The notes: generated by a model from the sequence alone, not told the origin. A stretch of DNA of 64,000 nt from a candidate division FCPU426 bacterium (GCA_963719085.1 CAVRAL010000004.1:608001-672000); one strand, 5' to 3'; shown: positions 18,825 to 60,838, numbered from the stretch's first letter. Numbers and translations: made by a program.

Positions 18825-20453
18825 TCAGTGTCCCCCGCCGCCGCCGCCCGGCGCGCCCCAGCCGGTAGGTTTTTTAAGAAAAAGAATCGGGATAATGGTG
18901 ATCACGAAAATACAAGCCATCATCCAGCACATATGGTCAAAGCCCAGTACAAAGGCCTGTTTCTTAACCCGGAAGAAGGCTTCCTTGGCCACCAGATTGT
19001 CCGGATGGGCCATGCCGAGGGTGTCGGCGAATTTAAAGCTCATCCCATTGACGCTTTGGGCCCATTGGCTGTAGCCGATGCGAAGCGGGCTGATATATTG
19101 CCGCAAGTGGTCATAGGCCACGTCCTGGGATTTGCTGAACATGGTGGCCAAAAAGGCGATGCCGATACTGCCTCCCATTTGACGGGACAGGTTCATAATG
19201 CCCGCGGCCTGCCCCAAAGCGGGCCCCTTGAACTGGCCCAGCACTAAAGCGTTCACCGGGATGAATAAAAAGGGCATCCCGAGCCCCCGAATCAGCTGGG
19301 AGTCGACCAAATCCCCATAGGTGGATTGGGGCGAAAAATTTCCTAAATAGATGAGACAGGCCTCGATGGACGCCAATCCAAAAAACATGAACATCCGGGG
19401 ATCGAATTTTGAGAACTGGCTGCCGATGACCGGCATCATGAACCCGGCCAAGAGCGCCGCCGGCACGAACAGATTGCCGGTTTGGCCCGAGTCGAGCCCC
19501 AAAATGGTGCTGGCGAAAATGGGCACGAAAAAGATAAGACTGTAAAGCATGAACCCCACCGCGCCCATCAGCAGCGTGCCGTTAAGCAGGGCTACGTTTT
19601 TATAAAGCCTCAGGTCGATGATGGGATGCTCGGTCGTCAGTTCCCACCAAATGAAACCCGGGAGGCATAGGCCCGCCGTGATGGAACAAAGCAGGATGAT
19701 GTGATCGGAAAACCAATCGTCCGCCTGGCCCCGTTGAAGCACATATTGAAGGCATCCGATTCCCACGATGAGCAGCGCCAAACCCAAAGTATCCACCGGC
19801 GCCGTGCGGGCCTTGTTGTGAGCGTGGGCGTGCTCGGCTTCCACTTGGTAATCCTTCACGTAGGCCAGCGACAGGAAGGTGGCCAAGATGCCGAAGGGGA
19901 TATTGATGTTAAAAATCATCCGCCAGCCGAAATGGTCGGTTAAAAAACCACCCAAGGGCGGGCCGATCGTCGGGCCGATGATGACCACCATGCCGTAAAG
20001 GGCGCTTCCAAAGCCGGACCTTCCGGGGAACGCTTCCTGGATCAAAGCCTGGGAGGTGGGCAAAAGCGCGCCGCCCGCCGCGCCTTGAATGACCCGGAAA
20101 ATGATGAGACTGGTCAGATTGGGCGCCAGCCCGCAAGCCACCGACGCGAGGACGAAAAGAACGATACAGGTGGTGTAGTATTTTCGGCGGCCGAAACGCA
20201 TCCCCAGCCATCCGGAGATGGGAAGCACCACGGCGTTGGAAATGATGTAGCCGGTCACCACCCAGCCGATATCATCCAGCGTGGCGCCCAAGTTTCCCAT
20301 CATGGTGGGAATGGCCACGTTGACGATGGAGGTATCCACAATCTCCAAGAGCGACGCGATACCCGCGGTCAGGATCAGCATCAATCCGGCGCGGGAAAGA
20401 CCTTGCTGGGGCGCCGCCGCCGAGGGGGCGGCTATCGTTTTGGCTTCCGACAT
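18825..20453 (-). CDS. emrB: DHA2-family MFS efflux permease (EmrB-like)
   Basis: DTSIVNVAIP, WVVTGY, RFGRR, GPTIGPPLGG, WRMIFNINIP. Confidence 0.9.
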   Translation of the reverse strand: MSEAKTIAAPSAAAPQQGLSRAGLMLILTAGIASLLEIVDTSIVNVAIPTMMGNLGATLDDIGWVVTGYIISNAVVLPISGWLGMRFGRRKYYTTCIVLFVLASVACGLAPNLTSLIIFRVIQGAAGGALLPTSQALIQEAFPGRSGFGSALYGMVVIIGPTIGPPLGGFLTDHFGWRMIFNINIPFGILATFLSLAYVKDYQVEAEHAHAHNKARTAPVDTLGLALLIVGIGCLQYVLQRGQADDWFSDHIILLCSITAGLCLPGFIWWELTTEHPIIDLRLYKNVALLNGTLLMGAVGFMLYSLIFFVPIFASTILGLDSGQTGNLFVPAALLAGFMMPVIGSQFSKFDPRMFMFFGLASIEACLIYLGNFSPQSTYGDLVDSQLIRGLGMPFLFIPVNALVLGQFKGPALGQAAGIMNLSRQMGGSIGIAFLATMFSKSQDVAYDHLRQYISPLRIGYSQWAQSVNGMSFKFADTLGMAHPDNLVAKEAFFRVKKQAFVLGFDHMCWMMACIFVITIIPILFLKKPTGWGAPGGGGGGH

Positions 20454-20490: not shown

Positions 20491-20549
20491 TTTCACCGCA
20501 AGAACACCAAAAACAAAGATTCGATTTTCTTGGCGTCTTGGCGGTGAAA
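20491..20549. repeat. Short REP-like imperfect palindrome between emrA and emrB
   Basis: tttcaccgcaagaacaccaa.. versus ..ttggcgtcttggcggtgaaa, 18/23 match. Confidence 0.7.
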
Positions 20550-20569
20550 TGGTTTTTAAATACGTTCTT

Positions 20570-21460
20570 TCAGTGAACCTTGATCTTCACGACCGCGGAA
20601 AGTCCGGCGGCCAGACGGTCCATATCGTCGGCGGTCAAATCGGTCAAAGTAATCTTGACCGGAACCCGCTGGACCACCTTGGTGAAATTACCCGTCGAGT
20701 TATCCGGCGGAAGCAAGGTAAAGGTCGAGCCCGTGGCGGAACCGATGCTGTCCACCACGCCGTTGAAGGATTTTCCCTTGACCGCGTCCACGTCCACCTT
20801 GACCGACTGGCCCGGCTGAATTCGGGACAATTGGGTTTCTTTATAGTTGGCTTCCACCCAGCGTTCGCTGGAGCTCACAAAACCAAAAAGCGCCTGGCCC
20901 GCGGGAACCACCATACCCACTTCCACCGACTTTTTGGCGATGGTGCCGTCTTCCGGCGCCGTGATTTGGGTGTAACCCAGGTTCAACTTCGCCTGGTCGG
21001 CCTTGGCCTGATCGGCCTTGAGGCGCGAGGTGAGATTGCGGTACTTGGCCAAGGCCGCGTCATAATCGGATTTGGAAATGGCCTGGTCTTGGTACAACTT
21101 GGTGTAGCGCTGGTAATCCTGGGACGCTTGTTCCAAGTCCGCCTGGACCGACGCCTGGTCGGCGATGGCCTGGCTATAGGAAGTGGAATAGTCTTGGTCA
21201 TCCAACTGGGCCAAAACTTCCCCCGCCTTCACCTTTTGGTTTTCCTTGACCAACACCTTCACCACCGCGCCGCCGATGCGGGGCGCCAGCATGACGGCGT
21301 GGGCCTGCACATAAGCGTCATCGGTTCCCTCATACATAAAATTTTGGAACATGAAATAGGCCGCCAACACGACCGCCAGGGCGATCAGGCCCCGGATAAT
21401 CATGGTTTTTTTGCCGTTGGCCGGCTTGACCCCGGAGGGCGCTACTGGTGTCTTACTCAT
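20570..21460 (-). CDS. emrA: HlyD/EmrA-family periplasmic adaptor
   Basis: TDDAYV, ANYKETQL, PPDNSTGNFTKVVQRVPVKI. Confidence 0.9.
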   Translation of the reverse strand: MSKTPVAPSGVKPANGKKTMIIRGLIALAVVLAAYFMFQNFMYEGTDDAYVQAHAVMLAPRIGGAVVKVLVKENQKVKAGEVLAQLDDQDYSTSYSQAIADQASVQADLEQASQDYQRYTKLYQDQAISKSDYDAALAKYRNLTSRLKADQAKADQAKLNLGYTQITAPEDGTIAKKSVEVGMVVPAGQALFGFVSSSERWVEANYKETQLSRIQPGQSVKVDVDAVKGKSFNGVVDSIGSATGSTFTLLPPDNSTGNFTKVVQRVPVKITLTDLTADDMDRLAAGLSAVVKIKVH

Positions 21461-22934
21461 TTTCAATCCTCTTTCCCACAGACAGTTCAAGGTTAATTAA
21501 AGCTTCCAACGAATCAATTTGGGCCTGCACCAGGCCCGCCGCCGCGCGGTATTCCTCCAACTCAGCGTCCAACACATCCGTCGTGGTGCGGGTTCCCGCC
21601 TGAAACCCCACCGTGGCCAAACGCGCGCTTTCTTTGGCCTCGGCCACATCCGTCAACTTGGCGTTATAAATGGCCACGTTGGAAACCAACCGGCGTTTCC
21701 AAGTATCAAAGTCATAAGGCGCCTGGACTTGGGCCGCCTCAAAAGCGTCCCGGGCACCTTTGGCCTTTTCCCCATCCTCATTGGCCTTGGCCAAGGCGGA
21801 AGCCCCGTCCAAAATGTCCCAGGTCGCGGAAGCTCCGATGTAGTAGTCTTCCCGGAACTCATCCGTATGAATGACCGTTCCGTAGTAATTCGGCGTGTCG
21901 TACCATTGGTATTGGCCTATCAAAGACACCTTCGGTATTAAGAAGGAAGCCTCGCTGGCCGCGCCCTCGTCCTCGGCGGCTTTGGCTTGAAGCTCGGAAG
22001 CCTTCAAATCGGGTCTCTGGCTGAAATCAAGATCGCCCGCGGCCCCTAAAATTTTATTCGCGTCCAAAACCGGAAGAATGCCGCTTAACGGACGGTCGTC
22101 GGTTTTCATTCCCATGATCTGGGCCAGGTTTTCCCGCGCCAACACCACTTGGTCGTGGGCGGAAATTTGGTCGGATTGGGACTCATCGAGCTGAACTTTC
22201 ACCCGAAGCGAGTCGTACTTGGTGGCTTGCCCGTTATCCAGCTGATCCGTAACGATGCGCAGGTGGTCCTGCAGGGTCTTCACGTTTTGGTCGGCCATGT
22301 CGGAAAGTTCTTGGGCCGCGATGGCCTCATAAAACATCAACCGGATTTTTTGTTGGAGTTGGAATAAAGACCAATCCGCCATGATCTTGGCCGCTTGGTG
22401 GGTGTTGTTGGCCGCGTCCAATTTATGAACATTCTTAAACCCGTCAAAGACGTCGAAACTGGCGTCCAAGCTCAAGGCCGTGTCCGGCTGGATGCTGGGA
22501 AATTGCAGGGGAGGCGGCCCCGCGAATTCAATGCTCAAGTAAGGATATTGAATATCGAAAAAGTGTTGTCCGCTCACGCTGATATGAGGCAGAAACCCGT
22601 CGGAAAAAGCCTCCACTTGGCCCCAAGAGGCCTGGCGTTCCATATCCTGGGCTTGGCGGTAAACCGGCGATTGGCTCACCGCTTCTTGCAGAGCCTGGTC
22701 CAGGGTCAATCCACCCGCCACCATGCCACCAATTTGGGGTACGGAAGCGCCGGACCCAAAACCGCTTCCGGCCGCGGATCCTGTTTCTAAGGGGGAGGCC
22801 GTCACGGTCACCGCGGGCGCCGTGGTTTCAGACTCCGGTCCCGTTTGGGCCAAGGCCCATACCGGCATTCCCAGGCTGAGTAAAAGACCCATCGCCCAAG
22901 CGCCTTTTATTTTCATTTGATCGCTCATCGTCAT
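21453..22934 (-). CDS. TolC-family outer-membrane efflux protein
   Basis: Signal peptide, LTLDQAL..A, RPDL, G.RT..DVLDA; lies in the efflux operon. Confidence 0.9.
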   Translation of the reverse strand: MTMSDQMKIKGAWAMGLLLSLGMPVWALAQTGPESETTAPAVTVTASPLETGSAAGSGFGSGASVPQIGGMVAGGLTLDQALQEAVSQSPVYRQAQDMERQASWGQVEAFSDGFLPHISVSGQHFFDIQYPYLSIEFAGPPPLQFPSIQPDTALSLDASFDVFDGFKNVHKLDAANNTHQAAKIMADWSLFQLQQKIRLMFYEAIAAQELSDMADQNVKTLQDHLRIVTDQLDNGQATKYDSLRVKVQLDESQSDQISAHDQVVLARENLAQIMGMKTDDRPLSGILPVLDANKILGAAGDLDFSQRPDLKASELQAKAAEDEGAASEASFLIPKVSLIGQYQWYDTPNYYGTVIHTDEFREDYYIGASATWDILDGASALAKANEDGEKAKGARDAFEAAQVQAPYDFDTWKRRLVSNVAIYNAKLTDVAEAKESARLATVGFQAGTRTTTDVLDAELEEYRAAAGLVQAQIDSLEALINLELSVGKRIENE

Positions 22935-38923: not shown

Positions 38924-39018
38924 CGGTATTCCCCTTTAAGCGGATGCTTCGTCCTATAATACGCCAAGGTCCCCAAGGGGTTACCAGCCCCTTAATTTCT
39001 TTTTATCAGGAGTCATTC

Positions 39019-39258
39019 ATGCCCGAACCCCACATCGCCGCCAAACAGCCCGCCGCCGTCGAGCTGGAGGCCGGAAAAACCTACGCTTGGTGCGCTTGCG
39101 GCCATTCGGCCAAGCAGCCCTTTTGCGATGGATCCCATAAGGACCATGGATTCAGCCCCCTGGTTTTCAAGGCCGAGGAAACCAAAACCGCCTACTTATG
39201 CCAATGCAAGCACACCAAGACGCCGCCCTTTTGCGACGGAACCCACAAACACGTCTGA
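39019..39258 (+). CDS. Tandem CDGSH iron-sulfur protein (MiNT/CISD3-like)
   Basis: CACGHS.KQPFCDGSH and CQCKHT..PPFCDGTH; AGGAG SD. Confidence 0.92.
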   Translation: MPEPHIAAKQPAAVELEAGKTYAWCACGHSAKQPFCDGSHKDHGFSPLVFKAEETKTAYLCQCKHTKTPPFCDGTHKHV

Positions 39259-39270
39259 GGAAGGGCTCGC

Positions 39271-39675
39271 GTGAATTTTTTAGCCTTAAAAATCATCGGA
39301 CGACTTTGCCTAAGCGGGCTTTTTATCATTTCCGCGGCCGCCGATTGTTTGAACTGGCTCCCCATGACCATGGTTTTAACCCATAAGGGCGTTCCCTTCT
39401 CGCCCTGGTTTTTGGCCATCGCGGTCCTTTTAAAACTGGTCGGGGGAACCTTACTGGCGCTGGGAATAAAAACCCGCTGGGCGGTGGCGGCGTTGGTGTT
39501 GTTTCTTTTACCGGCCACTTTTATTTTTCACGATTTTTGGGCGGCCGCCCCGGAGGACAAGTCGGATCAATTCATCCACTTTTTAAAAAACGGGGCCATC
39601 TTGGGCGGGCTTTTTATTTTGGCCGCCGAGCCTCCGGCGGCTTCCGCTCCCAAACCTAAAAAACGCCGGCGTTAG
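39271..39675 (+). CDS. DoxX-family membrane protein
   Basis: GRL.L..LF, FHDFW, FLKN.AILGGL. Confidence 0.85.
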   Translation: MNFLALKIIGRLCLSGLFIISAAADCLNWLPMTMVLTHKGVPFSPWFLAIAVLLKLVGGTLLALGIKTRWAVAALVLFLLPATFIFHDFWAAAPEDKSDQFIHFLKNGAILGGLFILAAEPPAASAPKPKKRRR

Positions 39676-49822: not shown

Positions 49823-50755
49823 ATGCCACATCCGAACCCCAAGCACCCGGCCGGCGGTTTTTTGTTCCTGTTATTTTTTTGCGGCCTTTTTTTAAACGGC
49901 TGCTTCATTAAATCCCTCGCGGTCAATTCCATCGGCGACAGCCTGGCGGGCTCCGGCGATACCTGGTCCAGCGACGACGACCCCGAGCTGGTGCGCCAAG
50001 CCCTTCCTTTTAGCTTGAAGTTGATTGAAAGCGTTTTGGCCGCCACGCCCCAGCACACCGCCCTTTTGACCGCCGCCTGCCAAGATTTTACCGAATACGC
50101 CTACGCCTTTGTGCAGCAGGACGCGGAGTTCATCGCCGACAAGGATTATCCCAAATCGGAAGAAATGAAAGTTCGGGCCAAAAAACTTTACTTAAGGGCC
50201 TACGCTTACGGCTTGCGCGCTTTGGATTCCCGCCATTCCTCTTTTAGCAAAGACCTCTTCACCGATCCTAAAAAAGCCGTGAAGGAAGCCGACAAGGATG
50301 ACGTCACCGCCCTTTATTGGACCGGCGTCTCTTGGATGGCCGCGATTTCCATCGGGAAGGACGATCCGGCGCTTTTGTCCGATCTTCCCCAGGCCGAGGC
50401 TTTGGTTTACCGCGCCTACGCCTTGAACCCTGATTATGACGACGGTGCCATCGAAAGCTTCCTCATTACTTATGAGGGCGGGAAACCCGCCGCCATGGGC
50501 GGCTCCGCGCAAAAAGCCCGGGACCACTTCAAGCGCGCCGTGGAACTGTCCAAGGGAACCCAATTGGGCCCCTACTTGAATTTGGCCGAAGCCGTGGATG
50601 AGCAAACCCAGAACCAAGCCGAGTTCGTCGATTTGCTGAACCAGGCCTTGGCCATTGACGTGGAGGCCGACAAGCCTCATCGCTTGGTGAACCTCATCAT
50701 GCGTAAAAGAGCCCAGTGGCTTTTAACCCAAGTTGATTCCATTTTCGTCAAATAA
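49823..50755 (+). CDS. TRAP transporter TatT component (TPAT lipoprotein)
   Basis: LNG-C lipobox; SDDDPELV..ALPF.LK..E, YAYAFV, MGG....A..HF.RA. Confidence 0.88.
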   Translation: MPHPNPKHPAGGFLFLLFFCGLFLNGCFIKSLAVNSIGDSLAGSGDTWSSDDDPELVRQALPFSLKLIESVLAATPQHTALLTAACQDFTEYAYAFVQQDAEFIADKDYPKSEEMKVRAKKLYLRAYAYGLRALDSRHSSFSKDLFTDPKKAVKEADKDDVTALYWTGVSWMAAISIGKDDPALLSDLPQAEALVYRAYALNPDYDDGAIESFLITYEGGKPAAMGGSAQKARDHFKRAVELSKGTQLGPYLNLAEAVDEQTQNQAEFVDLLNQALAIDVEADKPHRLVNLIMRKRAQWLLTQVDSIFVK

Positions 50756-50781
50756 TTCCCATCATTTTTAGGAGGCGTCTC

Positions 50782-51810
50782 GTGTTGAACTCATTCAAGA
50801 ATAAAATCATCTTAGGCTTGGCCCTCGCCGCGTTTGCGTCGATTGGCTTCCGCGCTCAAGCCCAAGACGCCGCGGTCACTTTGAAGCTGGGAACCCTGGC
50901 TCCCCTGGGATCTCCCTGGGATAAAATCATCCGGGACATGGGCGAGGAATGGAAAACCGCCGGAGTCCTCTTGAAGGTTTATCCGGGCGGTGAACTCGGC
51001 GATGAGCCCGACATGGTCAGTAAAATGCGCACGGGCCAGATCCAAGCCGGCGTCTTCACCGTGGTGGGCTTGTCCCAAATCGATAAAGGCTTCTCAGCCC
51101 TTTCGGTTCCCATGCTTTATAAAAGCGACGCCGAGAGCGATTATGTGCGCTCCAAACTCCAGCCCCTGTTGGAAAAAAGGTTGCTGGCCGATGGCTACAA
51201 GATCCTCAATTGGGGCGACGCCGGTTGGGTGATGTTTTTCGGCAAGACCCCCATCCTCACCCCCGACGATTTGAAAAAAGCCAAGTTCTTCATTTGGGGC
51301 AACGACACCGACACCATGAACATCTGGAAGTCCGCGGGCTACTCGCCCGTGCCGCTGTCGGCCACCGACATCTTGCCCAATCTTCAAACCGGCTTGATTG
51401 ATTCCTTCGATACCACGCCCCTATCCGCCCTTTCGTTTCAATGGTTCCCCTTGGCGCCGCACATGACCAATTTGAAATGGGCTCCTTTGGTGGGCGCCAC
51501 CATCGTTACCACCAAAGCCTGGAACAGCATCCCCGCCGCTTCCCGGCCGGCGGTCCTCAAGGCCGCCGCTGAGGCGGGCAAGCGGTTCAAAGATGAGATC
51601 CGTACCGATAACCAAGCCGCCATCGACGCCATGAAACAACACGGCTTGATCGTGCATGACGTCACCGATGATCAATACGCCCAATGGGAACAGCTTTTCC
51701 AAAGCGTCTATCCCCAGATCTCGGGAACCGTGGTCCCCGCCGATATGATGACCCTGGCCATCAAGTATCGGGATCAATACCGCGCCTCTCAAAAAGCGCC
51801 GGCGGAATGA
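50782..51810 (+). CDS. dctP: TRAP substrate-binding protein DctP
   Basis: KLGTLAP.GSPW, YPGG.LGDE, LQTGLID. Confidence 0.9.
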   Translation: MLNSFKNKIILGLALAAFASIGFRAQAQDAAVTLKLGTLAPLGSPWDKIIRDMGEEWKTAGVLLKVYPGGELGDEPDMVSKMRTGQIQAGVFTVVGLSQIDKGFSALSVPMLYKSDAESDYVRSKLQPLLEKRLLADGYKILNWGDAGWVMFFGKTPILTPDDLKKAKFFIWGNDTDTMNIWKSAGYSPVPLSATDILPNLQTGLIDSFDTTPLSALSFQWFPLAPHMTNLKWAPLVGATIVTTKAWNSIPAASRPAVLKAAAEAGKRFKDEIRTDNQAAIDAMKQHGLIVHDVTDDQYAQWEQLFQSVYPQISGTVVPADMMTLAIKYRDQYRASQKAPAE

Positions 51811-53708
51811 GTTTAAAGGCCGCGAAAAAAAAGTCCGGCGCCTTGGCTCAAACGGATTTAGGACTCGAGCCCGGCGCCGTCGCGCCGGCGAAGCCCGCCC
51901 CCTGGCACGCGGGCGAGAATCTTCTTCTCACTTTCTTTTTCGCCGTCATGCTCCTCCTGCCCCTGATCGACATCCTGGGGCGTAAACTTCATCAGCTCGC
52001 GGCTTTCATTCCGGCCAATCCGGTTTCGGGCTCGCTGAACTTGGTGGCCCACAGCACCCTGGCCGTCATGATGGTGGGCGGCGCCATCGCGGCGCGCGAA
52101 GGGAAATTGCTTTCCCTCTCCACGACCGCCAGCCTTATTCCCGACCGCTTCAAAACCGCCGTGCGTGTTTTTACCTGCGGCCTCGGCGCCGCCATCACCC
52201 TTTACCTGGTCAAGGCCAGTTTCGATTACACACTGATTGAAAAAGGCGTGGGGTCGATCATCGCCTGCGGCATCCCCAAGTGGGCCTTTCTCGCCCTGCT
52301 GCCCTTAGGCTTTAGCGCCATCCTGGCCCGGCTGATTTGGCGCGTCTCGGAAGAAAGAATTGTCCGCCTCGCCACCCTGCTTTTGGCGGTTGGCCTTTCA
52401 ACCCTCGGTGTCTTGATCCAACAACCCTCCGAAAGTTTCCTTTACCTTTGTTTCGCGGTTCTCATGGTTTCGGTTGTTTTTGGCGCGCCCGTATTCGTGG
52501 CCTTGGGCGGCGCCGCGCTTATTTTTTTATGGAATTCCGACACGCCGATCGACTCCATCCCGGCCGAGACCTACCGCATGGTGGTCTCCCCCACCATTCC
52601 CACCATCCCGCTTTTTACCTTGACGGGTTATTTTTTGGCCGAGGGCGGCGCGTCGGTCCGGCTGTTGAAAGTTTTTCAGGCCCTGTTCGGTTGGCTCAAG
52701 GGCGGTTCCGCCATCGTGACCGCGCTCGTCTGCGCTTTTTTCACCTGCTTCACCGGCGGCTCGGGCGTGACCATCTTGGCCCTGGGCGGTCTGCTGATGC
52801 CGATCCTATTGGCGGAAAAATATAAGGAGCGCGAAGCGCTGGGGCTTTTAACCTCGGCGGGTTCCTTGGGCATGCTTTTCCCCCCCAGCCTGCCGGTCAT
52901 TCTTTACGGCGTGGTTTCCCACACGCCGATCGACAAACTTTTCTTAGGCGGGCTTTTGCCCGGGATGATTTTGATGATCCTGACCGCCTGGTGGGGCGTC
53001 AGCAAAGGCTCCAAGACCCAAGTCACGAAGCACCCGTTTCACTTCGAGAACGCCCTGACGGCTGTTTGGGAGGCCAAATGGGAATTGGCTTTGCCCTTGG
53101 TGGTTTTCTTTTTCCTTTTTTTAATCAAGGTGACTTTGGTCGAGTCCGCCGCCCTGACGGCCCTTTACGCCTTTGTGGTGGAAGTTTTAATTTATAAAGA
53201 CCTGCCGTTTAAAAAGATCCCTAAAGTCGTGACCGAATGCGGCATTTTGGTGGGAGGCGTGCTTCTTATTTTGGGCGTGTCGCTGGGCTTCACCAACGAC
53301 ATGGTGGACGCCCAAATCCCGGACCAATTGGCCCAGTGGGTGCAAGGAACCGTCCATTCCCAATGGCTTTTTCTTCTGATGGTGAACTTCATGCTGATTA
53401 TCGTGGGAAGTTTGCTGGAGATTTTCGCCGCCATCGTGGTGGTGGTGCCGCTTTTAATGCCGATGGCCCAGGCCTTTGGCGTGGACCCGGTCCATATGGG
53501 CATTGTCTTTTTGCTGAACATGGAGCTGGGCTTTTTGGCCCCGCCCCTGGGGCTCAATCTTTTTCTTTCGTCCTACCGCTTCAAAAAACCCATGACGGAA
53601 GTTTATTGGGCCGTGCTTCCCATGTATTTGATCCTTCACGCCATGGTTTTAGCGATCACCTATATCCCCTTTTTAACCACCTTCCTGCCGCAACATCTGG
53701 ACTGGTAA
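51807..53708 (+). CDS. Fused TRAP DctQ-DctM permease
   Basis: N-terminal Q-like TMs, then IPLFT..G, TGGSGVTILALGG, FPPSLP, PP.G.NLF; ATGA overlap with dctP. Confidence 0.9.
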   Translation: MSLKAAKKKSGALAQTDLGLEPGAVAPAKPAPWHAGENLLLTFFFAVMLLLPLIDILGRKLHQLAAFIPANPVSGSLNLVAHSTLAVMMVGGAIAAREGKLLSLSTTASLIPDRFKTAVRVFTCGLGAAITLYLVKASFDYTLIEKGVGSIIACGIPKWAFLALLPLGFSAILARLIWRVSEERIVRLATLLLAVGLSTLGVLIQQPSESFLYLCFAVLMVSVVFGAPVFVALGGAALIFLWNSDTPIDSIPAETYRMVVSPTIPTIPLFTLTGYFLAEGGASVRLLKVFQALFGWLKGGSAIVTALVCAFFTCFTGGSGVTILALGGLLMPILLAEKYKEREALGLLTSAGSLGMLFPPSLPVILYGVVSHTPIDKLFLGGLLPGMILMILTAWWGVSKGSKTQVTKHPFHFENALTAVWEAKWELALPLVVFFFLFLIKVTLVESAALTALYAFVVEVLIYKDLPFKKIPKVVTECGILVGGVLLILGVSLGFTNDMVDAQIPDQLAQWVQGTVHSQWLFLLMVNFMLIIVGSLLEIFAAIVVVVPLLMPMAQAFGVDPVHMGIVFLLNMELGFLAPPLGLNLFLSSYRFKKPMTEVYWAVLPMYLILHAMVLAITYIPFLTTFLPQHLDW

Positions 53709-53882
53709 ATCAAAAAAGTTCCGCTTCGGTTTAACGATTTAAACTTAGACAAAATGTTTTTTTCGTTCCCCGATTCATCTCCCGGGGCGGGAGACCGATT
53801 AACTTCGGCCAAAATGTGCTAATATTTTCACAAGAGTTGTTTTGAAAACAACACCTCCCAACACTTTACGAAGGCACCGCTT

Positions 53883-54413
53883 ATGCCCCTTGAACAATTA
53901 AGACCCGATCAAGTCGACGCCCTTGGCCAAATGAGCAAGGCCATGTACGACGAATATAAAACCCTCGGTTTCGCCGGCATCACGGTCGATCCGGTGCGCT
54001 ATTTGGCCTTCCGTAAACAGGGGAAAAACGGCCTCTTCACCCAATTCATGGTCTCCGACGCCGGGGTTTTTTACGTGGACCCTTTGCGAAAAATTAAATT
54101 TAAATTCCATCCGGAATATTACCTCGTCTATCACGAAGGACTCAGCCCGGAAGAGGAACAAAAGCTTCGTGGCGCCGATTCAATCACGGTGAAATTGGAA
54201 AACGGCCTGGAGTTTTGGAAGCGGGTGATCGCCGGCAGCTGCCTGATTTACGATCACGCCCACGCCTGCGATTATCTTTTACCGGACCAAAAAGCGGAAC
54301 TGGAGCGGGTCAAAAAGCTCTACAGCCCTTCCGAGCTTGTCATTAAGCCCATGCTCCAAACCAAGCCCAAAGCCAATCCTTCCAATTCCAAGGTGATTGA
54401 TCTGGACAGCTAG
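53883..54413 (+). CDS. Hypothetical cytoplasmic protein
   Basis: 176-aa ORF filling the intergenic gap with protein-like composition; no motif recognised. Confidence 0.7.
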   Translation: MPLEQLRPDQVDALGQMSKAMYDEYKTLGFAGITVDPVRYLAFRKQGKNGLFTQFMVSDAGVFYVDPLRKIKFKFHPEYYLVYHEGLSPEEEQKLRGADSITVKLENGLEFWKRVIAGSCLIYDHAHACDYLLPDQKAELERVKKLYSPSELVIKPMLQTKPKANPSNSKVIDLDS

Positions 54414-54454
54414 CCCTTAGAGCCTTTCCCCGCTTTCTACCTTATAATGCCGCC

Positions 54455-55873
54455 ATGACCCCTTTTCTTCAAAAACACGCGGGCCTTTATACCGATCTTT
54501 ACGAACTCACCATGGCCCAAGGCTATGTGCTGACGGATAAGGCCGGGAGCTCCGCCTGCTTCGATTATTTTTTCCGCGAGACCCCCTTTAAGAGCGGGTA
54601 CGTGCTGTTCGCGGGGCTTGATGAGTTATTGGAAACCCTCCAAACCCTGACCTTTGAGGCCGATGACCTGAAGTACCTGGCCGATTTGGGCTTTCAAAAA
54701 AAATTCCTGGAATACCTTAAAAATTTCAGGTTCGGGGGAAAAATTTACTCCGTGCGCGAAGGCGAGGTTGTTTTTCCGCTGGAGCCCATCTTGCGGGTGG
54801 AAGGCACTTTATTTGAGACCCAGCTCATCGAAACCCTGCTCCTCAACCAGCTGAACTTCCAGTCGCTCATCGCCACGAAAGCCTCCCGCATGGTCCAAGC
54901 CGCCCAAAGCCGCCGCTTGGTGGAATTCGGGCTTCGCCGCTCCCAGGGATTAGCCGGACTTCAAGCCAGCCGGGCCGCCGCCATCGGCGGGATGGAAGCC
55001 ACGTCCAACGTTTACGCTTCCTTCCTTTACGGCCTCACGCCCTCGGGCACCCAGGCCCATTCCTGGATTCAAAGTTTTTCCGACGAGCTGACCGCCTTCC
55101 GCCGGTACGCGCAAATTTATCCCGACCGCTGCATTTTGTTGGTCGACACCTACAATACGCTCAAAAGCGGCGTGCCCCACGCCATCCAGGTGGCGAAGGA
55201 AATGGAGGCCCGGGGCCAAAAACTTTCGGGCATCCGGTTGGACTCGGGCGACCTGGCTTATTTAAGTAAAAGATCCCGGGTGCTTTTGGACCAAGCCGGT
55301 CTTCATTACGTGAAAATCGTGGTGTCGAACCAGCTTGATGAGCACATCATCAAAAGTTTGCTCGATCAAGGCGCGCCCATCAACGCCTTCGGCGTGGGCA
55401 CCAACTTGGTGACCGGACAGCAAAACCCCTCGCTGGACGGCGTCTATAAGCTCAGCTGGCTCGACGGGGAACCCAGGCTTAAAATTTCAGAGAATGTCAT
55501 CAAGACATCGCTTCCGGGAGTCAAAAAAGTGGTGCGTTATACGGACCCCGAAGGCTTTTTTTACGCCGACGGCGTGTTGTTGGAGGATGAAAAAAGCATC
55601 GAATACATCCATCACCCTCATTTTCCCGAGCAAAAAAGCCGGGTGGCCCATTGTTTTCCCGAGTCCCTGCTTTTTAAAGTAATGGAGGGAGGCAAAAGCC
55701 TGGTCACTTTAAGCGTGCCGGAAGCCGCCGCCTACGCCAAAGAAAGACTGACCAAGCTTTCGCCCGAGCGAAAAAGATTTGAGAACCCGCATATCTATAA
55801 GGTCGGCATGAGCCAAAAATTAATGGACATGCGCGGCCAGTTAATTCAAAAGTACCAGGAACAACGTCCATGA
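54455..55873 (+). CDS. pncB: Nicotinate phosphoribosyltransferase
   Basis: TDLYELTM, EFGLRR, GTQAHSW, LVDTY, RLDSGD, FGVGT. Confidence 0.95.
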   Translation: MTPFLQKHAGLYTDLYELTMAQGYVLTDKAGSSACFDYFFRETPFKSGYVLFAGLDELLETLQTLTFEADDLKYLADLGFQKKFLEYLKNFRFGGKIYSVREGEVVFPLEPILRVEGTLFETQLIETLLLNQLNFQSLIATKASRMVQAAQSRRLVEFGLRRSQGLAGLQASRAAAIGGMEATSNVYASFLYGLTPSGTQAHSWIQSFSDELTAFRRYAQIYPDRCILLVDTYNTLKSGVPHAIQVAKEMEARGQKLSGIRLDSGDLAYLSKRSRVLLDQAGLHYVKIVVSNQLDEHIIKSLLDQGAPINAFGVGTNLVTGQQNPSLDGVYKLSWLDGEPRLKISENVIKTSLPGVKKVVRYTDPEGFFYADGVLLEDEKSIEYIHHPHFPEQKSRVAHCFPESLLFKVMEGGKSLVTLSVPEAAAYAKERLTKLSPERKRFENPHIYKVGMSQKLMDMRGQLIQKYQEQRP

Positions 55874-56414: not shown

Positions 56415-56451
56415 AAAAAAAGCCCCGGGCCTTTAAGAGGCCCGGGGCTTT
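56415..56451. terminator. Bidirectional terminator
   Basis: aagccccgggcc/ggcccggggctt stem between convergent genes. Confidence 0.85.
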
Positions 56452-56471: not shown

Positions 56472-56825
56472 TTACTTCGCCGGAGTTTCGATCACCAGGT
56501 AATTGACTCCGCCCTTGCTTTCGACTTTTCCGTCTAAAGTCAGGCTTTGGCCGACCTTATCCTTGAATTGGTCCCGCAAGGAGTTAAAATCCCCGTCCAC
56601 CGGCACATAAAGCTTGGTGCCCTTTAAAAGCGCCAACTCCCCGCCGCCCGCCACGCACTTGGCTCCGCAAGCGGCGTGATCCGCGCCATGGGCCCCCTTG
56701 GTCACGTAACACTTCGCGCAAACCACTTCATAAGCCGAACCCGCCGCCGCGGCGCTATCCGCGAAAGCGATCGGAGCCGCCCCCAACATCAAGATGGCGA
56801 TGACCGCCAATAAATATTGTTTCAT
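56472..56825 (-). CDS. Small exported Cys/His-motif protein
   Basis: AAGGAGG SD; signal peptide (AFA); CAKC..H..C...C. Confidence 0.8.
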   Translation of the reverse strand: MKQYLLAVIAILMLGAAPIAFADSAAAAGSAYEVVCAKCYVTKGAHGADHAACGAKCVAGGGELALLKGTKLYVPVDGDFNSLRDQFKDKVGQSLTLDGKVESKGGVNYLVIETPAK

Positions 56826-56940: not shown

Positions 56941-57309
56941 TCAAGGGGATGGGAAGCTTTTTTCAATTTCCAGCATTTGCTCCCAGGAATCGATCAAACG
57001 GTCCTCGTAATTCCACTGCCAAAGCTGGTCTTCGGTAAACCCCTTCTTTTTCGCCAGGTTTTTGACCTCGGATTTGAAGGATTGCAGCACCCGGAGCACA
57101 TCCTCGTCCAGGCGCTGAAAATCCAACAGCAGCCGGACCCGCGCCTGTTCCACGGAAGTCCTCACCACCTTAAGGCCGGGAAACCGCCCGGGGAGATTAC
57201 GGATGCCCCATTCGGCCAGCGGTTTCAGGTCCCCGGTTAAAAGCGGCCGCCGCTGGACCGTTTCCAGCACCACGTAATGGAGCGAATGGGAAGAAAGCTC
57301 TTCGGTCAT
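56941..57309 (-). CDS. RAYT/IS200 (Y1 transposase)-fold protein lacking HUH and catalytic Tyr
   Basis: T..RRPL, LP.RFPG, Q.FKS, LWQ.NY.D..I; ATGA overlap with the ssuA-like stop. Confidence 0.7.
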   Translation of the reverse strand: MTEELSSHSLHYVVLETVQRRPLLTGDLKPLAEWGIRNLPGRFPGLKVVRTSVEQARVRLLLDFQRLDEDVLRVLQSFKSEVKNLAKKKGFTEDQLWQWNYEDRLIDSWEQMLEIEKSFPSP

Positions 57310-58262
57310 TGGAGCCGGGAATCCGCCAGGTAGTGCTGGTCGAAAAGATCGTCAATTTTAAAGTCATGCCGAAGGATTCCGGTCTTCAAAAGAAAAGTTT
57401 TGATCTGTCCCATGGCCTTAATGTCCGATTCTTGAACGTCCATGGACCAATCGTAACCCCTCAGGCTTTCGGCCATGACCTTGGGGGGGAACTGGCTGTT
57501 GGCGGATAAAAGTCTCAGGGCTTCTTTCGGGTGTTTTTTCAAATAGTCATCGGCCCTTTCGGTGGCTTGTAAAAAGGCCTCGACCAACCGGGGGTTGGCC
57601 GCGCCGAAAGCGCCCCGCGTCATATAAACGCTTAAATTTCCCGAAACTTTCGCGGAATCCACCAACACCCTCGCCTTTCCCGCCATCTCCAGTTGAGTCC
57701 GGTAGGGCATCCAAAGCACGATGGCGTCCACACTGCCGCTTTCGAGCGCCGGTCCCTGGTCAGGCCCGGGAAGATTCACCAATTGAACATCTTTCAAGCT
57801 CATGCCTTTTTGGGCCAGCACCTGCTGTAAAAAATAATGCACGCTCGATCCCACTTGGACCGCCACTCGTTTTCCCTTAAGGTCCTCAATCGATTGAATG
57901 GGGGAATCGGGGCTCACTAAAACCGCGTTGGTGGCCGGGTTAAAAGCCGCCTTGGCGATCACCTTCACATCCACGCCGTTGGAGCGGCCGATTAAGGGGG
58001 GCATATTGCCCACGTTCATCAGGTCCACCCGGTTCCCGGCGGTGGCCTCAATGATGAGCGGCCCGGAAAGGAATAAGTCGTACTCGACCTTGGCGCCCAG
58101 GGGAGCGAAGGCCTTCTCATAGTAGCCCTTGCTCTTGCCCAACAGGATGGCGCTGGAGGTCGGTTGATAACCAATGCGCACCGTTACCGCCGACGATTGA
58201 GCCCAACCGGGCCCGACCCCCAGCGAAAGAAAAAATAAAAAAAATCTCAAAACCAATCGCAT
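57306..58262 (-). CDS. SsuA/NMT1-type ABC substrate-binding protein
   Basis: Signal peptide, VRIGYQ, F.SGP...EA, G..PP, DLKGKRVAV..GS. Confidence 0.88.
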   Translation of the reverse strand: MRLVLRFFLFFLSLGVGPGWAQSSAVTVRIGYQPTSSAILLGKSKGYYEKAFAPLGAKVEYDLFLSGPLIIEATAGNRVDLMNVGNMPPLIGRSNGVDVKVIAKAAFNPATNAVLVSPDSPIQSIEDLKGKRVAVQVGSSVHYFLQQVLAQKGMSLKDVQLVNLPGPDQGPALESGSVDAIVLWMPYRTQLEMAGKARVLVDSAKVSGNLSVYMTRGAFGAANPRLVEAFLQATERADDYLKKHPKEALRLLSANSQFPPKVMAESLRGYDWSMDVQESDIKAMGQIKTFLLKTGILRHDFKIDDLFDQHYLADSRLQ

Positions 58263-58296
58263 CCGGCTTTCTCCTTGAGATTCATGTTACCCGTGA

Positions 58297-59055
58297 TTAT
58301 GACTCAAAAAATTCACGACGGATACCCTCGCGGATTTTAACGAAGGCGGCGGCGCCCCGGTTACGGGGCCGGGTTAATTTGACCGGCACTATTTTCTGAA
58401 GGCTTCCAGGCCTCGGCCCCATGACTAAAACCCGGTCGCCCAGGTAAACCGCCTCGTCGATATCATGGGTCACTAAAAGCATGGTCATTTTCTCGGTTTG
58501 CCAAATCCGAAGAATTTCTTTTTGCATCTGGATGCGGGTCAAGGCGTCCAAGGCCCCCAAGGGCTCGTCGAGCAAAAGCACCTGGGGCCGGCCCACCAGG
58601 GCCCGGGCGATGGCGGCGCGCTGCTGCATGCCCCCGGAGAGTTGGTGGGGATAGGACTTTTCAAACCCCGTAAGACCCACCAATTTTAAATGCCGGTGAA
58701 CAGTTTCGGCGATTTCGGTGGGCGATAAATTTTTCGGGCATCCAAAAGCCACGTTTTGTTCCGCGGTCATCCAAGGAAAAAGCCGGGGTTCTTGGAAAAC
58801 CATTCCCCGGCTAAGATTGGGCCCCGCCAAAGGCCGGCCGCCTAAAAGAATAGCCCCCCCGCTGGGACTTTCCAGCCCCGCGATCAAGCGCAACAGGGTC
58901 GACTTGCCGCAGCCGCTTTTCCCCACCAAGGTCACGAATTCACCGGGCGAAATTGTTAGGTCGATCGGCGATAAAACCGACAACCGCCCTTGGGGCAGGG
59001 CGAAACTTTTCGAAACTTGGTTGAGTTGAAGGCCCGCGGTTTTCATGGGTTCCAT
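58297..59055 (-). CDS. SsuB/TauB-type ABC ATPase
   Basis: GKSGCGKST, FQEPRLFPW, LSGGMQQR, DEPLGALDALTR. Confidence 0.92.
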   Translation of the reverse strand: MEPMKTAGLQLNQVSKSFALPQGRLSVLSPIDLTISPGEFVTLVGKSGCGKSTLLRLIAGLESPSGGAILLGGRPLAGPNLSRGMVFQEPRLFPWMTAEQNVAFGCPKNLSPTEIAETVHRHLKLVGLTGFEKSYPHQLSGGMQQRAAIARALVGRPQVLLLDEPLGALDALTRIQMQKEILRIWQTEKMTMLLVTHDIDEAVYLGDRVLVMGPRPGSLQKIVPVKLTRPRNRGAAAFVKIREGIRREFFES

Positions 59056-59870
59056 TTCAAAAGCCGCCGCTCCAAGCGCAGCAGGACGAAATCAATCAAA
59101 AGACCGGTCAAGCCGATGGCCGCCACGCCCACTAGCATGACATCGGGCTGGGAAACTTCCCGGGCGTACATGATGAGATAGCCGATGCCGGAGGAAGCCG
59201 CGATGAGTTCGGCCCCCACCACGCTGGCCCAGGCAATGCCCATGCCCACCCGATAGCCGGTAAAAAGCGACGGCAGCGCCGAGGGCAAAATGATCCGGGT
59301 TAAAAGGGTGAAGCGGTCTTTTTCCAGTAAGCGGGCCACTTCCAGGTAATGGACATTCACCGATCGAACGCCTTGGGACGCGTTTAAAAGCACCGGCCAA
59401 AAGCTTCCCACCGCGATCACCGTCACCTTTGAGCCTTCCCCGATGCCCATCCATAAAATGAGCGCCGGCACCCAGGCGATGGTCGGAATCGGCCGAAGCA
59501 GGCCGGTCAAAAGCGAGAGCGCCTTTTCCAACCAGGGAAAAAGTCCCATGGCCAGCCCTAAAAAAGTTCCCGCGCCCGCGCCGATCCCGAAGCCTTCCAA
59601 AACCCGTATCAGGCTCACCCGCAAGTCATTCCAAAGTTCCCCCGATTGGATCATGGAAACAAGCGTGGCGCCGATCACGCGCGGCGAAGGCAAATAAGAG
59701 GATTGAAACCAACCCCGGTCGCAGGCGGTTTGCCACAGCGCCAAAAGGAAAACCGGAACCACTAAAGGAAATCCCCAGGTGAAAAGGCGGGAAATTTTTT
59801 TGGATAATTCTTTCAAAGGACTCAAGGGATCCGCCTTAGGCGCTGGTGGAAGACGCACGGCGATCGCCAT
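59043..59870 (-). CDS. SsuC/TauC-type ABC permease
   Basis: LPSP, SL.RV..GF, RPIP..AW.P..ILW.GIGE..K, VGAELIA...GIG; start may be later. Confidence 0.9.
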   Translation of the reverse strand: MAIAVRLPPAPKADPLSPLKELSKKISRLFTWGFPLVVPVFLLALWQTACDRGWFQSSYLPSPRVIGATLVSMIQSGELWNDLRVSLIRVLEGFGIGAGAGTFLGLAMGLFPWLEKALSLLTGLLRPIPTIAWVPALILWMGIGEGSKVTVIAVGSFWPVLLNASQGVRSVNVHYLEVARLLEKDRFTLLTRIILPSALPSLFTGYRVGMGIAWASVVGAELIAASSGIGYLIMYAREVSQPDVMLVGVAAIGLTGLLIDFVLLRLERRLLKWNP

Positions 59871-60750
59871 CCAGGTGTGTCGTCGCCAGGCGATCGGCTA
59901 AATAGCTGGACCGGGTCAGGGGCGAGGCTTGAACGGTCATCCCCATCTCTTTCCCAATTTGGGTGAAGCGCTCGTAGCGTTCCAACGGCACAGTTTCGGC
60001 GACGTCTAAATCAGAGCCCGGCGGTTTTAGGTATTGTCCGATCGTAAAAAACTGGACCCCGGCCCGGGCGGCATCCCTCAAAACCCCGGCCACTTCCTCT
60101 TCGGTCTCGCCAAAACCCACCATCAACCCGGCCTTGAGCATCAACCGTTTGGAATCGCCGGTCTTTGAAAACCAGCGGAAAAGATCGAGCGAGCGGTCAT
60201 AGAGGGCGCCCGGCCGGATACGCGCGTAAAGCCTGGGGACTGTCTGAAGATCGTGGGCCAAAACATCCGGCGGATTCCGCGTCAGAATCTCGTAAGAGGC
60301 CTCTTTGCCTTGGAAGTCGGGCACCAGGATTTCAATCTTGAGTTCGGGATCGAAGGCGCGAAGCGCCGTCACAATCCGGCCAAATTGGGCGGCCCCGCCA
60401 TCGGAAAGCTCATCCCGATTAGGGGAGGTCATGACCAAGTAGCGCACCTTCAAGGCCCGGGCGATCTCAACGACTTTGGCTGGTTCGTCCACATCCAGCG
60501 GCAGGGGTTTTCCCGTGGTCACCGCGCAAAAAGGGCAGCCCCGGGTGCAAATGGATCCCATCACCATGATCGAGATTGTTCCATGATGGGGCAGGCATTC
60601 CCCCCGGTTGGGGCATTTGGCTTCCTCGCAAATCGTGTGGATGCCGTTCATCGGCAGCCGCGCGATGGCTTGACGGAAGGGGTGTTTGGGATGGGGGTTG
60701 ATGAGAAAAGAAGGCGTCGTGGGCGATGAATTGAGGATCGGTTGGCTCAT
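59836..60750 (-). CDS. lipA: Lipoyl synthase-like radical SAM enzyme
   Basis: CEEAKCPNRGEC auxiliary cluster motif, CTRGCPFC, GQYL.P, RSSY. Confidence 0.88.
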   Translation of the reverse strand: MSQPILNSSPTTPSFLINPHPKHPFRQAIARLPMNGIHTICEEAKCPNRGECLPHHGTISIMVMGSICTRGCPFCAVTTGKPLPLDVDEPAKVVEIARALKVRYLVMTSPNRDELSDGGAAQFGRIVTALRAFDPELKIEILVPDFQGKEASYEILTRNPPDVLAHDLQTVPRLYARIRPGALYDRSLDLFRWFSKTGDSKRLMLKAGLMVGFGETEEEVAGVLRDAARAGVQFFTIGQYLKPPGSDLDVAETVPLERYERFTQIGKEMGMTVQASPLTRSSYLADRLATTHLDGDRRASSTSA

Positions 60751-60811
60751 GAGGGGCCCAGCATAATCCAAAAACTGATTTTTTTCGACGCTCAAGCCAA
60801 GTCCGGAAAAT

Positions 60812-60838
60812 AAAAAGGCCCCGGATTTGGGGCCTTTT
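60812..60838 (-). terminator. Intrinsic terminator after the DoxX gene
   Basis: aaaaggcccc/ggggcctttt stem. Confidence 0.8.

Follow-up and report, generated by a model that had tools for sequence, protein, structure and literature searches.

A dead Y1/HUH transposase homologue downstream of lipA, beside an optional SsuABC-type cassette, in an uncultured bacterial lineage

Lipoyl synthase (LipA) consumes its own auxiliary cluster as sulfur donor, and known representatives, such as those of M. tuberculosis (5EXI/5EXJ/5EXK) and T. elongatus (4U0P) and human LIAS, share the motifs CX4CX5C, CX3CX2C and RSSY. Binding proteins of SsuABC importers are represented by E. coli SsuA (2X26) and X. citri SsuA (3E4R/3KSX), the latter being described as coordinating sulfonate through Q36, G68, G86 and S141, with W185 as a pocket residue (PMC3839906). 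A transporter gene inside a lipoate-assembly cluster has a precedent in lipY, a putative fatty-acid transporter gene reported from sLpl(AB)-LipS1/S2 clusters (PMC10332631). The HUH motif and the tyrosine of helix alpha-D are given as the defining features of Y1 transposases (PMC3597680), and RAYTs are described as typically single-copy (PMC5581495).

Here we consider a stretch of 64,000 nucleotides (the window), five genes of which had been proposed in an earlier note to form a candidate new system. This proposal mostly fails, given an ordinary LipA, an optional importer cassette and a binding protein with sulfonate-contact residues. The region is probably a lineage-specific gene string of an uncultured bacterial lineage, made up of an ordinary lipA, an optional sulfonate importer and a gene for a 122-aa protein (ORF122), rather than an integrated sulfur-insertion system. 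Among the five genes, only the ORF122 relic is unusual.

The five-gene unit and its surroundings

The five genes lie on the minus strand at positions 56941-60750 of the window, and the region comprises the following features.

60813..60838, minus strand: intrinsic terminator of the upstream DoxX gene (10-bp stem with 6 GC pairs, then a T-run, i.e. U-run)
59836..60750, minus strand: lipA, predicted canonical lipoyl synthase, 304 aa (NCBIfam, alignment to 5EXI)
59043..59870, minus strand: ABC importer permease, NitT/TauT type, SsuC-like (BPD_transp_1; best NCBIfam match SsuC)
58297..59055, minus strand: ABC importer ATPase (ABC_tran)
57306..58262, minus strand: SsuA-family periplasmic binding protein (SBP) with a signal peptide (TIGR01728)
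56941..57309, minus strand: ORF122, dead, C-terminally truncated Y1/HUH (RAYT-like) transposase homologue (profile, fold, alignment)
56472..56825, minus strand: ORF117, small secreted Cys-rich protein with no family match in Pfam or NCBIfam
56419..56451, minus strand: strong intrinsic terminator 3' of ORF117 (14-bp stem with 10 GC pairs, then a T-run)

Family searches bear out the gene identities given in the earlier note, and its description of five co-directional genes, overlapping or spaced by 34 nt and preceded by a terminator, is likewise accurate: lipA and the permease gene overlap by 35 nt, the permease and ATPase genes by 13 nt, the ATPase and SBP genes are separated by 34 nt, and the ATG of ORF122 sits on the SBP stop codon in a 4-nt ATGA overlap. 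The lipA transcription unit is bounded on its 5' side by the strong, G+C-rich hairpin at 60838-60813, which lies between the DoxX gene and lipA and is recovered identically in both the MFE and the centroid fold. Between lipA and ORF122 there is no predicted strong terminator, and no convincing one was found in the 115-nt spacer that separates ORF122 from ORF117. ORF117 is the usual downstream neighbour, syntenic in six of the eight related loci that we compared (L001-L008; the lipA side is visible in seven of them, whereas L003 runs into a contig end and displays only SBP-ORF122), and it may belong to the same transcript, whose 3' end is then likely to be the terminator at 56419..56451.

The wider surroundings were surveyed through the 139 window ORFs of 100 aa or more: NCBIfam was run on 55 of them, 10 of which were also searched with Pfam, and Pfam on the remaining 84. 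SsuD, SsuE, TauD, LipB, LplA, GcvH and an E2 lipoyl domain were all missing from this set, as the earlier note had maintained for desulfonation, octanoyltransferase and lipoyl-domain genes. The sole Biotin_lipoyl-like match, at 20570-21490, is to an HlyD-type membrane-fusion protein, whose barrel-sandwich domain is not a lipoyl carrier.

LipA and the importer cassette

The start of lipA was placed at the ATG at 60750; a TTG further upstream, at 60795, finds no support in the N-termini of homologues. The protein passes the NF004019 (295.5 bits, cut-off 203) and NF009544 (287.8 bits, cut-off 210) models, but it differs from known LipA proteins in falling under the TIGR00510 equivalog cut-off (279.3 bits against 310.25) and in yielding only Radical_SAM in Pfam (4.4e-17), with no match to a separate N-terminal LipA domain. 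Among solved proteins M. tuberculosis LipA 5EXI is closest to it (E 4e-55), and it aligns to this protein in the CX4CX5C motif for the sacrificial auxiliary 4Fe-4S cluster (CEEAKCPNRGEC aligned to CEEAGCPNIFEC), the radical-SAM CX3CX2C motif (CTRGCPFC to CTRRCDFC) and the C-terminal RSSY motif with the serine ligand of the auxiliary cluster (LTRSSYLA to LVRSSYRA). The CX4CX5C motif is invariant in 46 clade members, residues R280, S281, S282 and Y283 are invariant in the clade, and LipA as a whole is 76-80% identical across the seven related loci. Calling this lipA a variant, as the earlier note did, is therefore weakly true at best, every catalytic motif being canonical.

The further claim that the enzyme has been repurposed is contradicted by the same alignments and by the genomic context in the relatives. 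The genes gcvH-gcvP, its normal target operon, occur upstream of lipA in three of the seven lipA-bearing loci: lipA follows them immediately in two, L001 and L007, and in L004 two other genes come between (gcvT is also visible in L001). The lipA of the window adjoins no gene for a lipoyl carrier or octanoyltransferase; LipB and LplA domains are also absent from the 129 ORFs of the eight loci. Judging from its motifs, the window lipA appears to encode an ordinary lipoyl synthase, which would insert two sulfurs into octanoyl-GcvH or octanoyl-E2.

Turning to the cassette, the permease is a BPD_transp_1 protein (Pfam, 5.7e-26) with SsuC NF008470 as its best NCBIfam match (180.6 bits, below the cut-off of 347), and it is 65-71% identical in L005-L008. 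The ATPase (ABC_tran; Pfam, 2.4e-35) scores highest against SaoA (236 bits, below the cut-off of 360), with NtrCD (233 bits, also below cut-off) and the SsuB-type PRK11247 (219.9 bits, cut-off 395) behind. The failure of both proteins to reach the SsuC/SsuB equivalog cut-offs distinguishes them from described SsuABC systems and counts against our explanation of the region. The SBP, like SsuA, passes TIGR01728 SsuA_fam (219 bits against 163.5), and its nearest solved proteins are E. coli SsuA 2X26 (8.8e-33) and X. citri SsuA 3E4R (3.3e-31). All five of the residues that align with the X. citri ligand and pocket positions listed above are kept (Q33, G67, G85, S140 and W184). The SBP subfamily comprises 68 full-length clusters at 57-100% identity, followed by a drop to 35%, and no close relatives above ~35% identity were found outside this clade.

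Because the SBP retains the complete set of sulfonate-contact residues, the cassette is most likely an SsuABC-type importer that would supply sulfur by bringing in aliphatic sulfonates, rather than one for octanoate or lipoate, whose analogues were among the substrates considered in the earlier note. It differs from described SsuABC loci in its location between lipA and a dead transposase homologue and in having no adjoining ssuD or ssuE. Neither these two genes nor tauD turned up in the window (139 ORFs) or in the eight loci (129 ORFs), so that no route for using an imported sulfonate is apparent there, a point against our explanation.

Should all five genes nevertheless constitute one system, the importer would bring in an organosulfur compound, or one resembling octanoate or lipoate, for use by a repurposed LipA-like sulfur-insertion enzyme, and ORF122 would act as a regulator. 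The tight packing with overlapping junctions, the TIGR00510 score below cut-off and the lipY precedent are all in keeping with such a scheme. The lipY case, however, differs in its pathway, LipS1/S2 there (PMC10332631) and LipA here, and in its proposed substrate, a fatty acid, whereas the SBP here has a sulfonate site. The full set of canonical motifs in LipA, the gcvH-gcvP genes preceding lipA and the five sulfonate ligands of the SBP all argue against the scheme, which we regard as very unlikely, also in view of the gene order discussed below.

Gene order in the related loci

The full order lipA-permease-ATPase-SBP-ORF122 recurs in L005-L008, and the 3' end of it in L003, so the linkage of lipA with ssuABC-like genes, for which the earlier note had suggested a neighbourhood search, does exist in relatives. 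However, the linkage is not general, as the cassette separates lipA from ORF122 in the window and in four of the seven loci with both sides visible, but is missing, with no remnants seen, from L001, L002 and L004. L001 and its sister genome L007 (support 97/96) have opposite cassette states, being collinear at 79-84% nucleotide identity except for a clean 2.6-kb indel corresponding to the cassette. In all seven loci with that side visible lipA is found upstream of ORF122, and the genes upstream of lipA, between lipA and ORF122, and downstream are all variable, leaving lipA as the only constant neighbour of ORF122. The constant pair is thus lipA and the 122-aa gene, and the ABC cassette is optional and dispensable for this pair. 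Its presence or absence leaves the neighbouring genes undisturbed, and translation of ORF122 would be coupled to that of its immediate upstream gene; in L001 this gene is lipA, with whose stop codon the ORF122 start overlaps.

These patterns bear on the single-system scheme in both directions. The identical order in L005-L008 agrees with it, and the cassette, wherever seen (in the window, L003 and L005-L008), occupies the same place; this fixed site, and an SBP clade whose relatives elsewhere do not exceed 35% identity, leave room for a real link to lipA. On the other hand, the cassette is missing in three of the eight loci, including one of the two sister genomes. A point against our own explanation is that the eight relatives come from a single lineage and are syntenic over more than 10 kb (pncA, pncB, TRAP genes), so the conserved order may reflect descent and not function.

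A looser connection would be regulatory, the importer sharing a transcript with lipA, so that uptake of sulfur would increase along with a sulfur-consuming cofactor enzyme while no substrate is passed to LipA. The overlapping junctions and the lack of a strong predicted terminator within the unit would allow this, the SBP has the features of a true sulfonate-binding protein, and LipA is known to use up its own cluster as sulfur donor. Yet the cassette has been lost without compensation in three of the eight loci, desulfonation genes were not found nearby in the window or the eight loci, and by our own reasoning lipoylation needs little sulfur in comparison with cysteine synthesis. We therefore view regulatory coupling as unlikely, and prefer to see the cassette as an optional member of a lineage-specific gene string.

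ORF122, a Y1-derived protein that cannot cut DNA

The ORF122 family comprises 82 homologue clusters. Its profile retrieved 86 proteins at E <= 1e-3 and reached true Y1_Tnp proteins at E 5.7e-13; all 23 of the longer matches tested carry PF01797, 22 of them above the gathering cut-off. Of 29 individual members, seven match PF01797 at E <= 1 (best 1.2e-5); the window ORF122 itself has no Pfam match, and a profile search of PDB sequences gave no Y1 protein. A Foldseek search of the PDB with the AF2 model of ORF122 (pLDDT 86.7) returned 30 matches at E <= 0.001, and among the matches listed all are IS200/IS605 TnpA or RAYT proteins; the model superposes on 4ER8 with TM 0.72 and rmsd 2.2 A. Profile, predicted fold and alignment together identify ORF122 as a real Y1/HUH transposase homologue.

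The resemblance to RAYT/TnpA-REP (E. coli 4ER8) and IS200/IS605 TnpA (ISDra2 2XMA, IS608 2VJU) extends to the beta-alpha-beta-beta-alpha-beta core of the model (Foldseek E 3e-7 to 4e-5) and to the shared RFPGL, FKS and LWQ motifs. ORF122 differs from these proteins in the missing N-terminal 'RLxxxDY' segment, in a family-specific invariant LDxxRxDED motif and, above all, in its catalytic residues. Where 11 true Y1 proteins have H-V-H, ORF122 has R57-V-R59 and the family consensus is R-V-E, and most family members stop just past LWQWxYEE, before any alpha-D helix tyrosine, the window ORF122 having Ser at the Tyr column. With both HUH histidines and the tyrosine helix lost, ORF122 cannot cut DNA, in full agreement with the dead RAYT-fold protein recognized in the earlier note. 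The protein descends from a Y1/HUH (RAYT-like) transposase, whose fold it has kept.

Such losses could also mean that an IS200-type or RAYT-type element once inserted downstream of lipA and that ORF122 is what is left of it, decaying and without function. The absence of catalytic residues, the truncated C-terminus and single REP-like palindromes beside the gene, seen in L001, L002 and L007 only, would suit this idea, but the confidently predicted fold does not, and the frame is uninterrupted both in the window and at all eight loci. Moreover, the alignment of the 82 clusters has 12 invariant and 17 nearly invariant columns, and dN/dS is 0.08-0.40 in seven pairs, with dS saturated in most of them. 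Decay is hence hardly credible; ORF122 is under purifying selection, a maintained gene that is single-copy in the window, where no second copy was found. In this it resembles the RAYTs, from which it differs in its constant lipA linkage and in that no REP or other repeat family was found around the gene in the 64-kb window.

What ORF122 does can be suggested only tentatively. It may possibly act in a non-catalytic manner through a retained surface for binding hairpin or single-stranded nucleic acid, for example as a small regulator. Two observations count against this: D63, D68, D70 and mostly E69 form an invariant acidic motif, specific to the family and unexpected in such a binder, and the 64-kb window yielded no conserved hairpin that could serve as a target. 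A bolder alternative is that ORF122 is a LipA-specific partner, an exapted adaptor or chaperone serving substrate presentation or the re-loading of the sacrificial auxiliary cluster, with the sulfonate cassette as a mere passenger. The exclusive constancy of lipA as its neighbour in seven of seven loci, the overlap with the lipA stop codon in L001, the acidic patch itself and the joint presence of the ORF122 family and this LipA clade on shared large contigs are compatible with such a partnership. However, the family has no conserved Cys or His able to hold an Fe-S cluster, and synteny confined to one lineage carries little weight; we consider this role rather improbable, and nucleic-acid binding stays our tentative suggestion for ORF122. 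The interest of the locus is modest and lies in a new, undescribed family of dead transposases adjoining otherwise ordinary genes.

Organization of the lipA locus and its relatives

A tightly packed run of minus-strand genes leads in the window from lipA through an ABC importer cassette, which comprises a permease, an ATPase and a substrate-binding protein (SBP), to ORF122, a small homologue of Y1/HUH (RAYT-like) transposases. Three of the four junctions are overlaps (35, 13 and 4 nt), and the remaining one is a 34-nt gap. All five genes listed here are ORF calls:

60838–60813, minus strand: strong terminator (hairpin and U-run) between the upstream DoxX gene and the lipA unit
59836–60750, minus strand: lipA
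59043–59870, minus strand: ABC permease
58297–59055, minus strand: ABC ATPase
57306–58262, minus strand: periplasmic binding protein (SBP)
56941–57309, minus strand: ORF122, 122 aa
56451–56419, minus strand: next strong terminator, after ORF117

No convincing terminator occurs in the 115-nt spacer 3' of ORF122. The product of the gene that follows, ORF117, has a signal peptide and then a Cys-rich region (CAKC...C...C) and belongs to no family in Pfam or NCBIfam; the gene keeps its syntenic place 3' of ORF122 in six of the eight related loci described below and may share its transcript. Searches with NCBIfam or Pfam found SsuD, SsuE, TauD, LipB, LplA, GcvH or an E2 lipoyl domain in none of the 139 window ORFs of at least 100 aa, and nothing in the window was detected with Rfam or by a tRNA scan. 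The ORF layout, the terminators and the 139-ORF scan thus bear out what the earlier note had described, namely packed ORFs, an upstream terminator and the absence of these genes. An HlyD-type membrane-fusion protein (20570–21490, minus strand, opposite a 315-aa ORF at 20549–21496 on the plus strand) gives, with its barrel-sandwich domain, the sole biotin/lipoyl-like match among the 139 ORFs; its gene lies between those for an EmrB-like MFS pump (18825–20453) and a TolC-like protein (21453–22934) and hence belongs to an efflux operon. Elsewhere in the window (38944–39675, plus strand), another gene of the DoxX family (39271–39675) comes right after an ORF for a CDGSH-type iron-sulfur zinc finger (38944–39258).

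Genome contigs were scanned with a profile of the ORF122 family, which yielded eight loci (L001–L008) from assemblies of uncultured bacteria, and these were compared with the window by tblastn with the window proteins. The taxonomy of the ORF122-bearing lineage is unsettled in public records, with the labels Candidatus Firestonebacteria, Proteobacteria and unclassified "bacterium" attached to the clearly related syntenic loci L003, L005 and L006. The pairing of lipA with ORF122 is constant (7/7 loci in which the stretch upstream of ORF122 is visible). The full order lipA–permease–ATPase–SBP–ORF122 recurs in L005, L006, L007 and L008, and L003 has SBP–ORF122 at the contig end, but no ABC gene separates lipA from ORF122 in L001, L002 and L004. 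No remnants of ABC genes were found in the lipA–ORF122 spacer of the latter three loci at E ≤ 10. Matching of contig sizes adds six contigs of 1335–3133 nt that appear to encode both LipA and a homologue of ORF122 and to be too short to hold the cassette as well, and 18 of 82 ORF122 clusters match an SBP-clade cluster in the size of the longest contig; this proxy for co-location can be taken as a hint only, because it includes a physically impossible match of 1127 nt and misses the known cassette of L005.

Downstream, the loci share with the window ORF117, pncA, pncB and a TRAP transporter; the latter three form a syntenic convergent block (window 49823–55873; also L001 and L004–L008) that combines nicotinate salvage (pncB-pncA) with a transporter consisting of a fused DctQM and a separate DctP, accompanied in the loci by a TAtT component. 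The region upstream of lipA varies: gcvT-gcvH-gcvP in L001 (2432–6968), gcvH-gcvP in L007 (1210–4389) and, with two further genes, in L004 (2244–5396), DsbA in L002, and DoxX in L005, like in the window. In the window genome the glycine-cleavage linkage is broken, and the DoxX gene with its terminator precedes lipA. Small lysine-rich signal-peptide ORFs without an assigned family lie between lipA and ORF122 in L002 (7700–7985, plus strand) and, overlapping the ORF122 stop codon, in L005 and L006 (from about 8345).

LipA and the sulfonate importer cassette

The window LipA passes two NCBIfam lipoyl-synthase models and misses only the strict TIGR00510 equivalog cut-off. Its closest solved relative is the Mycobacterium tuberculosis LipA (5EXI, E = 4e-55), and the alignment of the two proteins shows that the window LipA retains CX4CX5C for the auxiliary cluster, CX3CX2C for the radical-SAM cluster and RSSY at the C-terminus; across 46 clade members these motifs do not vary. 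Judged by these signatures, it is a canonical lipoyl synthase. The glycine-cleavage operon containing gcvH is the textbook substrate operon for LipA, and the position of lipA behind gcvH-gcvP in three of the seven lipA-bearing loci therefore argues, together with the retained motifs, against the suggestion that the enzyme has been repurposed.

The cassette is a variable, optional element of the lipA–ORF122 locus. In the LipA tree, L001 (without the cassette) and L007 (with it) are sisters with support values of 97/96, and well-supported branches require that the cassette state changed at least twice. Across their entire 16 kb, L001 and L007 are collinear at 79–84% nucleotide identity, except for 2.6 kb present only in L007 and located between lipA and ORF122. 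Pointing the other way, the cassette has been seen only at this position, and its SBP belongs to a closed clade of 68 full-length clusters at 57–100% identity plus one partial cluster, after which identity drops to 35%.

The SBP passes TIGR01728, and its nearest solved relatives are the SsuA proteins of Escherichia coli (8.8e-33) and Xanthomonas citri (3.3e-31). The sulfonate ligands of X. citri SsuA are given in an excerpt of PMC3839906 as Gln36, Gly68, Gly86 and Ser141, with Trp185 lining the pocket; the window SBP has Q33, G67, G85, S140 and W184 in the aligned columns (5/5 conserved), and it is accordingly assigned to the SsuA type from its sequence. The permease and ATPase are of the NitT/TauT type and score under the SsuC and SsuB equivalog cut-offs. 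Desulfonation genes were found neither in the window nor among the 129 ORFs of at least 160 aa in the eight loci. We infer that the cassette mediates ordinary aliphatic-sulfonate uptake for general sulfur supply, the substrate being a prediction. The new system envisaged in the earlier note, an importer feeding a repurposed sulfur-insertion enzyme with ORF122 as a regulator, would have been notable if true; the evidence points instead to ordinary lipoylation and ordinary sulfonate uptake. A literature search at the title and abstract level returned no relevant paper on a link between lipA and ssuABC; an excerpt of PMC10332631 mentions lipY as a putative fatty-acid transporter in LipS1/S2 clusters.

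ORF122 and its relationship to Y1 transposases

ORF122 itself has no match in Pfam or NCBIfam. Its homologues make up 82 clusters (90–133 aa) with 12 invariant and 17 nearly invariant alignment columns. PF01797 (Y1_Tnp) is hit at E ≤ 1 by seven of 29 members, with a best value of 1.2e-5. The family profile retrieved 86 proteins at E ≤ 1e-3 from 1.84 billion representatives; all 23 of the longer matches tested (137–285 aa) carry PF01797, 22 of them over the gathering cut-off, and the seven short matches scanned (99–124 aa) are without a Pfam family. Against PDB sequences the profile found no Y1 transposase, its matches (tektin, AsnC; E ≥ 0.24) being no better than chance, and nothing usable came from an Atlas search from which PF01797 was excluded. 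A single-sequence AF2 model was poor (pLDDT 62.6) and was replaced by an AlphaFold model based on the 82-sequence alignment (pLDDT 86.7, pTM 0.78). With the latter, Foldseek found 30 PDB matches at E ≤ 1e-3, and every match listed among ranks 1–30 is either an IS200/IS605 transposase or the RAYT of E. coli (4ER8; TM 0.72, rmsd 2.2 Å). The link to Y1 transposases, missed by the profile search of PDB sequences, is thus shown by the representative-library search and by the fold.

In a joint alignment, the H-V-H of the true enzymes corresponds to R57-V-R59 in the window ORF122, and the family consensus reads R-V-E there. The family stops shortly after the LWQ motif that it shares with the enzymes and therefore lacks the alpha-D helix, which carries the catalytic tyrosine; the short tail of the window protein has Ser in the tyrosine column. 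A family-specific motif, LDxxRxDED, located behind the former HUH strand, is kept even by the distant members P0206, P0209 and P0221. With the fold matching, the HUH replaced and the tyrosine helix missing, the call of a "dead" RAYT-fold protein stands, and ORF122 is a catalytically dead Y1-fold protein.

The window and each of the eight loci have an unbroken ORF122 reading frame, and dN/dS ranges from 0.08 to 0.40 in seven pairs, of which only L005 versus L006 has an unsaturated dS (0.85; omega 0.18). ORF122 is single-copy in the 64-kb window, no family of REP-like repeats surrounds it there, and tblastn against plasmid and phage collections gave no match. It represents a real, maintained and non-mobile gene family under purifying selection; that it should be a functionless relic seems most improbable. 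REP-like G+C-rich single palindromes adjoin ORF122 in L001 (8390–8410), L002 (7644–7660) and L007 (8421–8437 and 8461–8481). They have no other close matches (0–1 mismatch) in their own loci of 9–16 kb and none in the window, where two palindrome types from the relatives remained without a match at up to three mismatches. These palindromes may be relics of a mobile past of ORF122 or a coincidence.

Possible role of ORF122

The start of ORF122 overlaps the lipA stop in L001 and the SBP stop in the window, which couples ORF122 to the gene that happens to lie before it. We infer that it acts without catalysis. Nucleic-acid binding is our tentative preference over a role as a partner protein of LipA, which we consider rather unlikely. 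An adaptor of the latter kind might, for example, present octanoyl-GcvH or help to re-load the sacrificial cluster of LipA; it would have been co-inherited and translationally coupled with lipA across the whole uncultured lineage, and the lineage-restricted sulfonate importer, inserted between the two genes, would place sulfur supply on the same transcript. Note that the relatives all come from a single lineage in which synteny is long-range, so that gene order alone cannot prove function. The complete scenario, in which a transposase fold was exapted into core metabolism as a dedicated non-catalytic partner of LipA and the importer was inserted to tie in sulfur supply, is a long shot.

Domesticated Y1 transposases that remain catalytically intact, the RAYTs, are known. 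Searching titles and abstracts, we encountered neither a description of a dead, truncated domesticated Y1 transposase nor a relevant paper linking lipA to a transposase or transposase-like protein, and a term search of the text of PMC6006769 found no mention of inactive or truncated forms. The remaining novelty is smaller but real: a conserved single-copy family that has kept the Y1/HUH fold, lost both catalytic elements and stayed attached to lipA. If ORF122 binds LipA or a nucleic-acid hairpin, it would provide a clean bacterial case in which a transposase domain has been exapted to serve as a small protein without enzymatic function.
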